Source: Eledone cirrhosa
Taxonomy: Eukaryota
Direction: 5' to 3'
NCBI GenBank assembly: GCA_964016885.1
Contig: OZ024741.1
Coordinates: 367,226,001 to 367,290,000, forward strand
Length of the DNA stretch: 64,000 nt
Below are positions 12,057 to 56,939 of this stretch, one piece after another. The notes under the pieces are model-generated. The model was not told the origin of the DNA. It searched no databases and worked only from the letters and a program-made list of their open reading frames with translations. Within the stretch, counting starts at the first letter, position 1. Each line of letters starts with the position of its first letter. Both the position numbers and the translations under genes were made by a program.

Positions 12057-12515
12057 GTGTATATATATATATATATATATATATATATATATATATATAT
12101 AGTTTCAGCCATCTGACTGTGGCCATGGTGGAGCCATTACCATGAGTAACATACATATATGTCCAGCCCAATTAATTGACCAACTATAGTGTAAGCAGAC
12201 ATAAGCACTCCACAACGTGGGTACTTTAAGGTGTTACCGATAAGGTATTAGACAGAGTGTCAATATTATAAAGAAGATAGATACATTTTATAGATGGAGA
12301 GAGAGGATCTATACATAAAATTGTCTCTTTTCTTTATAATATGTATATATATATATTTTTTTTTTTTTTTAGTATATGTTGGTTGTTTACCGACACCTCA
12401 ATATGCAGATTGGAGCACTCGAAGTACACAGGTTGGTTTGTTTACACCGGAGTAATGTAAAATAATTAAGTAAAATATGTAAAATTTGGCTTCGTTTATT
12501 ATAAATTATAGATAT

Positions 12516-12574
12516 ACTGCTCTATATATATATTTCGGTGACAGCCATCATTGGCTGTGACCTCTTCAGGCAGT
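12516..12574 (-). ncRNA. Minimal type I hammerhead ribozyme, left arm of palindrome 12459-12825
   Basis: Reverse complement reads actgc CTGAAGA ggtcacagcc-aatgat-ggctgtcacc GAAA tatatatataga gcagt; the cleavage-site region differs from the right-arm copy. Confidence 0.65.
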
Positions 12575-12712
12575 CCGAATTGGTGTGGGAAAGACAGGTA
12601 CACATGTTGTTGAAGTGTGTTTTACTCCGTCAATACATTGATATGTCCAGCTCCTTGTTGTGTAAAACACACTTCAACAACATGTGTACCTGTCTTTCCC
12701 ACACCAATTCGG

Positions 12713-12767
12713 ACTGCCTGAAGAGGTCACAGCCAATGATGGCTGTCACCGAAATATATATAGCAGT
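12713..12767 (+). ncRNA. Minimal type I hammerhead ribozyme, right arm of palindrome 12459-12825
   Basis: Stem I actgc/gcagt; core CTGAAGA (12718-24); stem II ggtcacagcc/ggctgtcacc (9 of 10 pairs); GAAA (12751-54); palindromic stem III; AUA cleavage triplet. Confidence 0.85.
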
Positions 12768-13825
12768 ATATCTATAATTTATAATAAATGAAGCCAAATT
12801 TTACATATTTGACATAATTATTTTATATATATATATATATATATATATATATATATATATATATATATATATACATATATATATATATATATATATATAT
12901 ATATATATATATATTATTCAGTTGATGAAAGTTGGTTGATCATATAATCTACCAACTTTTTCGTAAACAGATGTAAAGCCCTCTGCGATTTGTATACCTT
13001 AGGATTTTCTCAGTAAGGTATCAACCAGAGTTTCAATATGCATAATAGAATTATGTAATAAAAAGAAGGTATACGGATAAAACCCATCTCTCTTATTCAT
13101 ATATATATATAATATAATGATAAATACTAAAACCAGCATCAGGAAGACTTTAACACAAGCAACTAAAGCATAAATAATCAATAGGCAATACTCCTCCTCA
13201 CTCAAACCTTCAACCCAACCACCCTACATGTATTACTACCACCATTATTATTATTATTATTATTGTTGTATTTATGGAAGTAATTTACTAACAGAGAGCC
13301 AGTGTGTTGATTAAAACTACAGATAAAAATGGTTTGTTCGCGTTCCAGAGATTATATTTATACTTACACACACACACACACACACACATTTATACAAACA
13401 TATATATACACCCACTAGACAGGATGAAATAGTTTTACTGCATAGTAAGTTTCCTACTGAATTATCTATGTGAAGGGGAAGTGGGGCATAGCGGATGTGT
13501 ATGGAGTGGGGTGCAGTAATTGTTAGGAATTCTGTGGTAGTGATGGTGGTAGTGGTGGTGGTTACAGTGGTGGTGGTGGTGGTGGTCATAGTGATGGTTA
13601 CAGTGGTGTGGTGGTGGTGGTAGTGATGGTTACAGTGGTGGTGGTGGTGGTGATGGTCGTAGTGGGAGTTACAGTGGTGGTGGTGGTGGTGATGGTCGTA
13701 GTGGGAGTTACAGTGGTGGTAGTGGTGGTGGTGGTAGTAGGGGTTACAGTGGTGGTGGTGGTGGTGGCAATAGTGCCAGTGACAGCAGTGGTGATGGTAG
13801 TCCTACTTGTGATAATAGTATTGAT

Positions 13826-52914: not shown

Positions 52915-55180
52915 GTTTGTTTTCCGACCCTGTCCCCTCTACCAACAAGTTTCCTCCACCATCCAACACCTCGTCTCCTCCTCCCTCCCACCGACTCACA
53001 CATCATCGTCCGCACCCCCGCATCCCCACCATCTACTTCCTCCTTAAGATCCACAAACCCGACAACCCAGGCCGCCCCATCATCTCCGCCTACAACTGCC
53101 CCACTAAACTCATCTCCGCCTTTCTCGATTCCATCCTTGTCCCCCTCGTCACCGCCCTCCCCTCCTACATCTCCGACACCAACCCCGCCCTTCACCTGTT
53201 CGACTGCCTACTTTCCCACCCGGCCCACACCCCCTCCTCTTCACCCTAGACATTAAGTCACTTTACACCGTCATCCCCCACGCCGACGGCCTACGCGCCC
53301 TCCGGCACAACCTCGACTTTCGCCCCTCCCCGTCCCCTCCACCCCACCCTCTTTCGCCTCGCCGAGCTGGTCCTCACCCTTAACTGTTTCTCCTTCTCGA
53401 GTGAGCTTTACCAGCAGGTCGCTGGGGTAGCCATGGGCACCAGATAGGCGCCAACTATGCCAACCTTTTCGTTGGCCATGTTGAGGCCCAAATCTTTGCC
53501 CAGTACACCGGCCCCATGCCCGAACTATACGGTCCGTACATCAACGACTGCATCGGAGCCAGACCCTCACCCGAGAACAGCTCGACGACAGTCTCTCCTT
53601 CATCTGCTCCTTCCACGCCCTCCCTCCACTTCACCACCTCTATCTCCACCACCCACGTTCACTTCTTGGACATGTCCGTCGCCTTCGACCCCTCCCACCG
53701 CTCCCTCGTCACCTCCGCCTTCTTCAAACCCACCGACTTCCACTCCTACCTCGACTCACCTCCTCCCACCCAACACACACCAAACACTCCATTCCCTACT
53801 CCCAACTCCTCCGGATCCGCCGCCTCTGCAGCCGAGATGCTGACTTCGAGACTCAGGCCCTGTCTCTGGTCAACCATTTCATCCGGAGAGGTTACACCCC
53901 TCCCTCGTCCACGCCGCCCTCACTGGCGCCCGCGCAGTCCACTGCTCCACCGTCCTCACCCCACGCCCCTGCACCCCCACCCACCGTCTCCCCTTCCCCT
54001 TCACCTACCAGCCCACCACACTACCTCTCCACCGCACCATCCGCCTCCTCCGACGCCTCCAGTCCGACCCCTCCACCTCCTCATTTTCCCACCCCACCCT
54101 TCCCCTCCTTCAAACGCGCACGCAACTACCGCCCCCTCCTCATCCGCAGCCCCCCCCCGTTCCCTTCCCTGTTCCAGACATCGCTGCCGCACCTGCCCCC
54201 ACATCACCCACACCACCACCTTCCAGGGTCCCAACGGCCACTCTCTCTCTGTCCGTCATGCCTTCTGCTGCACCTCCTCCAACCTCGCCTACGGACTTCG
54301 CTGCATGGAGTGCAGCGCAACCTACGTCGGACAGACCGGACGTCACCTGGCGGATTGGTTCACGGAGCGTCTCGGCGGGAGTTTCCCCATCGCCCACCAT
54401 TTTGGTTCCCCCTGGACATTCTGCCCACCACCTCACAATCTGTTACCTGATCCAATGCCATGTGAACTCCGCCACCCGCCTTACGGTCGAGCAACACACC
54501 ATCTTCACCCTACAGACCCACACATCCCCCGACCTGAACTCCCCACCCCTCTTCCTTTAGCCTTTGACCGTCCCCCTTCCCTACACATACACCCTACTAA
54601 CACCACTAAAATACTCCCAAGTTTCACCGTCCCCTCCACTTCCAGCCATCCTCCCATCTCCTGGGACCACCCCACAACTAATAATACTAACACCCCACCC
54701 CTCCCCCTACCACACGCGCACCCACACCCTCAACACGCACACACCCACCAATACATACACTCACTCACACTATTCACACACCCTACTACCACCACTAACC
54801 CCCACCAACACATCCACATCCGACCACCCCACCACTAATAATACTAAACACCCCCACCCGACCTTCCCCCACCCCGCTCAACCCCCTGTCTCCCTCTCCC
54901 CTCTCCCCCTCTATCCACCCACCACGACCCCTACACGCCTCACACCCTTTCACCACTTGTTTCATTTTAATTTTGTTTATCTTCTAAAAAAATGTTTTCG
55001 TCCCCTTTAATGTCTTTCCACCACTCCCGCTCACACCCTCGGAACTCTTTTCCTGCCCACATTTCTCCTGATGAAGGGCTTATGCCCGAAACGTCGTCCC
55101 CCACCTCCCACTCATAAGCGCGAACCTAATATTAACACTTTGTACTGCCTATTCGCTTTGTTTTTGTTTTTTTTTGTTTG
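52915..55180 (+). mobile_element. Penelope-like element, Neptune-like, 5'-truncated and frameshifted, with 3' terminal region ending at (TA)n
   Basis: RT motifs IYFLLKIHKPDNPGRPII, LFTLDIKSLYTVIPH, YQQVAGVAMGTR*APNYANLF, YIND (decayed YIDD), FLDM, KPTDFHSYL; linker PCSRHRCRTCPHI; GIY-YIG NLAYGLRCMECSATYVGQTGR. Confidence 0.92.
55068..55095 (+). ncRNA. Hammerhead core in the 3' terminal region of the Neptune-like PLE
   Basis: CTGATGA a-gggc-ttat-gccc GAAA cg TC; stem I pairing is not evident. Confidence 0.65.
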
Positions 55181-56230
55181 TTTATATATATATATATATA
55201 TATATATATATATATATATATATATGTATATGTATATATATATATATACATATATATATATATATATGTATATGTATATATATATATATATATATATATA
55301 TATATATATATATATATGTATATGTATATATATATATATATATATATATATATATATATATATATATATATATATATATATATGATACACTTGGGAAAAT
55401 TAACAAAGAGAGGACAAGACAACGAACGAAAACAAGGCAAAACGAAAATCAATTCTTTAAGGGGAACTTTAAAAAAATATTTTTAAAAATACAAACGAAA
55501 GACATAGTACTCTAGGGTCATCAGTCGTTGAAATGGACTTTGGCAGTTTCGACCCCTACCAACGGTACTGCTGGTCCACTCGAGGTCACAGCGTCTGACA
55601 AAACCAAAACGCTGTCCAAGGGATTAAGAGACGAGAGATAAAACATTAATTTATACCAGTTAACAAGTACTCATAGAATTTTATGCGACGTCAGGAAAAA
55701 AGTAGTGGCTCTTATAGCACGTAAGTCTTAGGGATGAAACTAAGGAAAGGAAAAGAAGAAGGAAAGGAAAGGAAGAAAAAAGCAAGAAGAAGAAAGTAAG
55801 ATAACGTGTTAAAACTGTAAACCATTGAAATTAATGGGGGAGAATATATATATATATATATATATATATATATATATATATATAGGAAAAATTTCAGGAC
55901 CCCGACTGCAGAGCTCAAGCCGTTTCGACGGCTATTTCTGATTTCTGGACTGGTGCGTTATGGTCCACCTGGTTCCTTACCACACTTCCTTCGTTATATA
56001 TATATATATATATATATATATATATATATATATATATATATATATATATATATAGAGAGAGAGAGAGAGAGAGAGAGAGAGAGAGAAAAAGAGAGAGAGA
56101 GAGAGAGAGAGAGAGAGAGAGAGAGAGAGAGAGAGGTAAAACACTGGAAGGTAATATCCGTAGTGGTAGAGCACTCAGTCCATGGGACGAGTTTGGTAGA
56201 AGTAGTAACACAACAGTTAGTTCACCATAC

Positions 56231-56269
56231 CGAGAACAATTGTTTCACCTTATGCGGATCTTCAGCTCG
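56231..56269 (-). ncRNA. Minimal hammerhead ribozyme in palindrome 56201-56352; mutated GAAG copy on + at 56284-56322
   Basis: cgag CTGAAGA tccgcataaggt GAAA caattg TT ctcg: stem I cgag/ctcg, palindromic stem III acaattgt, weak stem II. Confidence 0.65.
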
Positions 56270-56939
56270 TACTCGTACCAACACGAACTGAAGATCCGCA
56301 TAAGGTGAAGCAATTGTTCTTGGTATGGTGAACTAACTGTTGTGTTACTACTTATATATAGCGAAATCTCGACTCATTTTCCCACGGTGGTTTTCTTAGG
56401 TCTGCCACAGACGACCACCTTACGACTGACCAACGATCTCAGAGCCACAACTTTACTTAACGTTTCCTGTTTGGAATGACTAACGGCGCCAATTGTACGC
56501 AGAGAGAATAATAGTTAAATTCCCCTTGTGGAAGGGCAGTCTGCTTCTCGACTCTGAGAGAGCCACTTTGGTCATTTAGCCTTGCTGGGATTAGCACTAG
56601 CTGAGAGAGTTACCAACATAAGTTAGTGAATATTACTACATTTACACACATAACATACTACAACTATACTACCAGTAATACTACTCTGGTGATGCCCGGG
56701 ACAAATCTTGATTGTATGCCCCAAAGACTCAAGTATAAGGCCTAATATACTGAGAAATATTATGAGAAAGGAAAACATTTTGAACATATAAACACAGATG
56801 AAATATGAAATAAACGCTTTATTCGATTTTAATATAAATCAATCAAATTTATTAAGTTTTTTTCCCCCAAATGATGCCCCCATCCAAAGGATGCCCGAGG
56901 CCAACGCATCGTCGCCACCCCCACCCCTCTCTGAACGCT

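Follow-up and report, generated by a model that had tools for sequence, protein, structure and literature searches.

Hammerhead ribozyme palindromes in Eledone cirrhosa as head-to-head ends of Penelope-like elements, possibly made by paired priming

Background

Endonuclease-positive (EN+) Penelope-like elements (PLEs) are known to leave head-to-head inverted truncated copies, with optional one-sided tails, and to target (TA)n (PMC8557442, PMC3846280), and dual minimal hammerhead ribozymes (min-HHRs), ~100–700 bp apart on opposite strands, have already been noted for PLEs (PMC4209133). How the tandem and inverted PLE structures are formed is stated as open (Craig et al. 2021, PMC8557442; Frangieh et al. 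2024, PMC11167929). Here we analyse 64,000 nt of the Eledone cirrhosa genome (assembly GCA_964016885.1, contig OZ024741.1, positions 367,226,001 to 367,290,000; hereafter the window), in which three palindromic cassettes, E1, E2 and E3, carry hammerhead motifs. We conclude that these cassettes are ordinary PLE debris: each arm is the pseudo-long terminal repeat (pLTR) of a PLE family coding for reverse transcriptase (RT) and GIY-YIG endonuclease elsewhere in the same genome. As to how protein-coding elements came to leave their pLTR ends head to head, we lean slightly towards a single insertion with two primings.

In vitro, the PAc Poseidon element nicks and extends both target strands, for which a dimer was modelled; reverse transcription begins inside the RNA, a little beyond the pLTR, at a pair of sites with the tail between them, and proceeds toward the RNA 5' end, while insertion is unaffected by mutation of the hammerhead ribozyme (HHR) (Frangieh et al. 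2024, PMC11167929). The upstream pLTR contains the start of Penelope transcripts (PMC2377424), and rotifer pLTRs have TATA and initiator (Inr) motifs (PMC3846280). Metazoan non-LTR retrozymes, whose short units carry a type I HHR, code for no protein and are related to the pLTRs of PLEs, are described as head-to-tail tandems forming families of their own (Li, Clavereau and Pollet 2026, 10.64898/2026.07.22.740005).

The cassettes of E. cirrhosa share with EN+ PLEs, as described in these accounts, the inverted truncated copy, the tail at one end, solo pLTRs, TATA/Inr motifs in the pLTR and the (TA)n target, but differ from them in that both partners are often pLTR alone and that, within a family, the 5' ends gather at a single base. 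Their ribozymes resemble the published PLE min-HHRs in the type I core, short stem I, palindromic stem III and predicted dimer fold; in E2 and E3, however, U.U replaces the G10.1-C11.1 pair at the base of stem II, which is present in E1. The likeness to PAc would extend to the nicking of both strands, to two start sites bracketing the tail and to a ribozyme cleavage with which PAc insertion can dispense, but the clades differ, and the coupling of one outer with one inner start, as well as run-off at a fixed base, are extrapolations of ours. Retrozymes form tandems in their own families, whereas E1–E3 are head-to-head by-products which have haplotypes in common with coding copies. In L1 twin priming, both nicks in the target serve as primers on a single RNA, and the two cDNAs leave an inverted segment; the L1 segments are adjacent and non-overlapping, while in E1–E3 each pair of arms spans one and the same pLTR, and its two starting points are set by the element. 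What is added here is the Inr-like 5' pile-up of each family, the counts of exactly one tail per fold-back and the presence of the same subfamily on both arms. A literature search, mostly without subscription papers and without supplements, found no published class of stubs delimited by a transcription start site (TSS) and no such tail or arm statistics.

The palindromes and their parent elements

Self-BLAST of the window bears out the three sequence-unrelated palindromes proposed by an initial annotation made from the letters of the window (Table 1): when compared with each other, E1, E2 and E3 gave only 10–17-nt chance matches (best E 0.057). The extents proposed there omitted the left-arm tails, which are family-specific, one-sided and 60–90 nt long in E1, E2 and E3, as well as a fourth fold-back at 7740-7947. 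The view that the palindromes abut TA repeats stands for the right side of E1 and of E3, where contact is clear, but the right arm of E2 adjoins just a short TA run followed by (TG)n, and the left side of E3 adjoins (AG)n.

All three families are repeated across the 3.0-Gb genome, with 5,173 exact matches to a 37-mer of the E2 HHR, 546 to a 35-mer of the E1 HHR and 150 to a 39-mer of the E3 HHR; a word from the E2 3' end had 6,311 matches, and the three HHR words, when reversed, had none. The first-pass candidate numbers (66, 1,245 and 1,631) are not copy numbers, and these exact-pattern counts replace them. Longer copies of the E1, E2 and E3 arms extend upstream into PLE coding sequence. Linkage of the arms to GIY-YIG/RT open reading frames (ORFs) elsewhere, which the initial annotation had set as a test, is therefore present for all three arm families, and its reading of the cassettes as ORF-less PLE termini at (TA)n holds, (TA)3 being found within 6 nt of 38 of the 43 untailed E2 arms versus a background of 11%. 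In partial tandems (L073, L076 and L079; L numbers denote retrieved loci) the arm is the pLTR, and the extra 60–90 nt, the tail, are the start of the element body; inverted pairs are seen at L071, L072 and L078. A non-autonomous family, first suggested by the fixed 5' end of E1, was rejected, as longer copies extend into coding sequence.

The E2 arm flanks intact 775-codon frames with RT and GIY-YIG domains. A piece of the endonuclease gave 150 scored genome matches at 98–100% identity, many of them inside open 775-codon frames, and so many intact parent copies at 98–99% identity suggest recent activity; they also offer an intact Neptune-like element for biochemistry. In Pfam, GIY-YIG passed its gathering score (E 3.3e-6) and RVT_1 fell short of its own (E 2.9e-6). 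ORF2 of the parent copy in L072 has C-X4-CxxC before the endonuclease, CxxC within GIY-YIG followed by two downstream His (CCHH), and DKG; Neptune is defined by a CX2-5CxxC linker, CCHH in the endonuclease and DKG (PMC8557442). By these motifs the E2 parent is Neptune-like, a label we take no further because it has two ORFs where Neptune has a single one, while a frameshifted ORF1 is permitted in some PLE types by the Fig. 1 legend of Craig et al. (PMC8557442); extra ORFs are mentioned in Neptune-like PLEs (PMC5408684). ORF1 (449 aa) overlaps the RT-endonuclease frame by ~90 nt in -1 (L072:5081-8661; also in L071, L073 and L076), and a TTTTTTA slippery heptamer lies at 6352 of L072, with no strong hairpin predicted downstream of it. 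ORF1 itself matched 0 Pfam families, and its best Atlas score, 0.77, gave no lead.

In the E3 parent ORF (L079), RWR, DKT, YRDD, CxCX5C and endonuclease motifs were recognised by eye, and CCHH is absent. The recovered piece of the E1 parent comprises only the thumb/endonuclease part; it too has CxCX5C and no CCHH, and the RWK/DKT region falls outside it. Hydra is defined by a CxCX5C linker, no CCHH, RWK and DKT motifs and a (TA)n target (PMC8557442), and on such motif grounds both parents are Hydra-like. Neither parent piece had a Pfam match, and the E2 and E3 ORFs had no significant BLASTP match to each other.

Arm ends, tails and pairing of arms

The 5' ends of the arms are sharply clustered. 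Among 96 E2 arms, 46 end within the 6 nt at -202..-197 from the pLTR boundary and 65 at -202..-188, with 3 at -203..-300 and 22 further upstream, and the pile-up recurs in a sample picked by the 3' word (10 of 37 arms at -200..-197). Fifteen of 42 E1 arms (duplicates included) end at -232/-231, and of 28 E1 arms scored as stopping at the pile-up ~5 are a variant that continues; in E3, 11 arms stop at -74 and 17 continue. In the window, the left arms of E2 and E3 extend to these sites and neither E1 arm does. All three sites are pyrimidine-A and Inr-like, and in E2 a TATA box, TATAAAAG, begins 31 nt upstream, which is the canonical TATA-to-start spacing. The pile-up base is thus likely to be the start of the element RNA, a putative TSS, and the stubs would probably be run-off cDNAs of the 5' pLTR of the mRNA. 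We infer this from the Inr-like pile-up taken together with the published Penelope start in the pLTR, the TATA/Inr motifs of rotifer pLTRs and the internal RT start of PAc. The HHR cut site, predicted at about -126 in E2, was rejected as a source of arm 5' ends, which fall there in too few cases (3 of 37 arms, from 2 of 25 loci). E2 arms beginning at or 1–2 nt from it were seen at L072:4756-4998 and L225, and are a possible trace of cleaved RNA that served as template.

E2 loci were sampled as the first 100 matches in genome order on one contig, from which 7 loci were dropped (pair duplicates or the long pair L072) and the last 10 lone matches left out; this sampling does not pick up a partner lying beyond 1.5 kb. 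The 63 distinct loci comprise 28 fold-backs with both arms at the pLTR boundary, 11 copies with just a short inverted 5'-end piece and 24 single or other copies. Counting the 10 left-out matches as singles and L072 as a pair would put E2 fold-backs at 40/74; the counts are 13 of 28 loci for E1 and 14 of 30 for E3. Palindrome lengths form a continuum from about 150 nt up to 8.7 kb, and junctions differ between loci, showing microhomology as well as short inserts copied from a template.

When fold-backs from all retrieved loci were pooled (n = 73), exactly one arm carried the tail in 65, neither in 3 and both in 5, 4 of the latter being tandems; the excess of one-tailed pairs has p about 2e-12 if arms are tailed independently at 0.5. 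Of these 65, 30 have it on the longer arm and 23 on the shorter, and 12 are ties (p 0.41). As a copied-back single cDNA cannot tail the shorter arm alone, such cases need two primings, and the strictness of the one-tail rule implies that the two were coupled. Paired arms also agree in subfamily: across 28 pairs, 7 of 136 diagnostic cells are mismatched, versus a mean of 65.7 expected and a minimum of 34 in 5,000 permutations. This agreement fits a single RNA template. Rare variants over 40 arm pairs, of which one, L136, joins two separate insertions, are arm-specific in 89 cases and shared in 22, so that the arms decay independently after insertion. The E2 tail was observed to end in an element-encoded TA-like run (L073:7381-7445; window 17177-17236) and the inner boundary ends in AATATA; both start sites thus offer microhomology to a nicked (TA)n.

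Ribozyme cores

Under a rule requiring stem I of at least 4 bp, CTGANGA, stem II, GAAA, stem III and UH, strict type I HHRs with self-complementary stem III were found on 4 of the 6 arms, namely E1 right (12718, +), both arms of E2 (17392, -; 17475, +) and E3 left (56265, -). The proposal of a hammerhead on both arms of each cassette is thus borne out for E2 and fails on two arms: in E1 left, an expanded TA stem III ends in GA rather than UH, and in E3 right, GAAG replaces GAAA (A15.1 to G) and stem I has a mismatch. The family consensus is intact. No palindromic-stem-III motif occurred in 60 block shuffles of the window, and the scanner gave 317 matches versus 0 in a reversed control over 890,856 bases (the window plus retrieved loci, which overlap and were mostly picked for HHR motifs). 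No hammerhead family was among the best 150 of 206 matches in an Rfam scan of the window.

In the retrieved loci, one and the same core is flanked by at least 10 unrelated sets of stems I and III; families with palindromic stem III, likewise at least 10 and unrelated, were noted in the flanks of L001–L250, often as opposite-strand pairs. Stem covariation is present across families, though the scanner itself demands pairing, and within families it is uninformative because copies decay after insertion. Neptune-like and Hydra-like families, unrelated to each other, were alike in having U.U at the stem II base and a UU cleavage site (17470-17508, 56231-56269).

For the intact arms, folding predicts dimers held together by stem III; in read-through folds of the cassettes the core is predicted to be fully paired in 6 of 6. 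As both arms point outward, read-through RNA from either direction makes the antisense arm first. The suggested competition between cleavage and hairpin closure is accordingly unlikely to be a real contest, and cleavage of full-hairpin RNA is, in these folding models, unlikely. The stub HHRs are likely passengers, with the parent transcript as the setting in which they work, and the stubs themselves are likely dead ends.

How the palindromes may have formed

Each palindrome was likely built on the spot in one insertion event. By analogy with the behaviour of PAc in vitro, the RT-endonuclease would nick both target strands within (TA)n, and both nicks would prime cDNA on one and the same RNA. 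Outer priming, just outside the pLTR, would yield the tail, and inner priming, at the pLTR edge, the untailed arm; both cDNAs would then run off at the RNA 5' end or truncate, and the ends so formed might be joined through microhomology, with short snap-back extensions. We offer more tentatively, and with some doubt, the generalisation that PLEs employ a fixed twin priming, always with one outer and one inner start, whose commonest product is a 'strong-stop' hairpin stub. If this were true, whenever twin priming took place at the 5' pLTR the two cDNAs would end by run-off at the cap site, the hairpin centre would mark the promoter to the base, and one mechanism would cover inverted pLTRs, tails at one end and the solitary HHRs that animal genomes hold in their thousands. 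A genome with thousands of young stubs and intact sources is a fossil record in which the question of PLE structures becomes countable, by tailed arms and by 5' stops.

The same PLE origin could also produce palindromes by self-priming, in which a single cDNA folds back at its 3' end and primes the second arm, as argued for head-to-head palindromes by Arkhipova et al. 2013 (PMC3846280). Several of our observations weigh against two primings in all cases. After 22 of 38 E2 arms ending at +1, an inverted copy starts 4–5 nt inside (a 3–4-nt loop); these near-+1 inversions and the 11 of 63 loci with partial 5'-only inversions are what cis snap-back predicts, and the partial inversions need either snap-back or internal priming. 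Arms of a pair have a common haplotype and the 22 shared rare variants, and their concordance in subfamily could also be explained by subfamilies that were active in succession. The pool of 73 fold-backs, moreover, includes best BLAST matches and full-length copies and was not all picked at random, and internal deletions in two left arms of E1 may have led to mis-scoring. Against self-priming, on the other hand, 23 of the 53 asymmetric fold-backs carry their tail on the shorter arm, the one that would have been copied, and in 7 of 38 E2 junctions both arms are complete with 0–4 nt between them, among which are spacers too short for a loop. We judge self-priming unlikely, and continue to prefer coupled primings on one template.

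A fixed 5' end might, instead of a TSS, reflect an RT stop at an RNA structure or an RNA processing site within a longer transcript, with stubs as ordinary truncated 3' ends. Consistent with such a stop, and adverse to a promoter, are the lack of a TATA box at the E1 and E3 sites and the lack of enrichment of an untemplated cap-type G before +1 (18 of 77 arms); all three sites also adjoin YAG after a pyrimidine-rich run. Yet the arms keep the AG, no common upstream exon or leader is seen, the E2 pile-up lies away from the HHR cut, and the E2 TATA spacing is canonical, so that we find a stop or processing site an improbable cause of the pile-up. The initial annotation had further proposed non-autonomous units inserting as pure hairpins, that is, a retrozyme-like or miniature inverted-repeat transposable element (MITE)-like family copied as a unit. 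In many E2 fold-backs the arms do come close to each other in length, and a few junctions are found more than once, but junctions otherwise vary widely, 24 of the 63 E2 loci are not fold-backs, and single copies have the same starting point as paired ones. Short and long E2 arms have common subfamily haplotypes (the commonest is carried by 15 long and 13 short arms), the preponderance of arm-specific over shared rare variants argues against copying of the finished hairpin, and no head-to-tail array of a short unit was seen in the 63 loci. In place of the fixed hairpin copied whole that marks MITEs and fold-back elements, we found variable junctions and lengths, unequal arms and a one-sided tail. 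A self-copying hairpin is thus largely refuted, and we give it very little credence.

Features of the window

Coordinates of the cassettes and of the fourth fold-back are collected in Table 1.

Table 1. Palindromes, arms and tails in the window (positions counted from its first letter)
Feature	Position	Strand	Remarks
Fourth HHR fold-back	7740..7947	.	core at 7856 (+) on right arm; stem III ACCACTGGT
E1 palindrome	12455..12828		90.7% identity
E1 one-sided tail	12371..12458	-	optional extension past pLTR boundary; same sequence after arm in L014, L017, L084, L087, L090
E1 left arm	12459..12663	-	~200 nt of Hydra-like PLE pLTR; HHR 12516-12574 broken
E1 right arm	12662..12825	+	164 nt of same Hydra-like pLTR; intact type I HHR 12713-12767, stem III ATATATAT; no tail sequence; joined to (TA)n
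E2 palindrome	17237..17630		97.7% identity
E2 one-sided tail	17177..17236	-	first ~60 nt of element body (5' untranslated region before ORF1); comes after pLTR in tandem/full-length copies L072, L073
E2 left arm	17237..17436	-	pLTR of young Neptune-like PLE; reaches pile-up (putative +1); intact HHR 17359-17397; 99% to intact copy L072
E2 right arm	17436..17630	+	begins 5 nt inside putative +1; intact HHR 17470-17508, stem III AGTACT
E3 palindrome	56197..56356		91.7% identity
E3 one-sided tail	56134..56199	-	comes after arm in L028-L031, L034, L079, L082
E3 left arm	56200..56273	-	pLTR end of Hydra-like PLE; reaches pile-up; intact HHR 56231-56269, stem III ACAATTGT
E3 right arm	56284..56352	+	broken HHR; joined to TA run

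The fourth fold-back has no HHR core on its left arm, its tail is on the right and its stem III is near-palindromic. The family is multi-copy, with many inverted pairs among the 40 that were scored of 1,071 candidates, and no parent ORF was found within 1.5 kb of 12 copies. A T run at 12357-12370 directly adjoins the end of the E1 tail; at locus L019, a similar T run and an inverted tail tip lie ahead of the E1 arm. Further local palindromes (6845-7099, 41952-42193 and 27316-27423) had no match in the type I HHR scan. The window also contains three copies of a ~500-nt dispersed repeat (8904-9415, 19060-19571 and 38637-39064) and, at 37029-37099, a tRNA-like match above gathering score in the Rfam scan.

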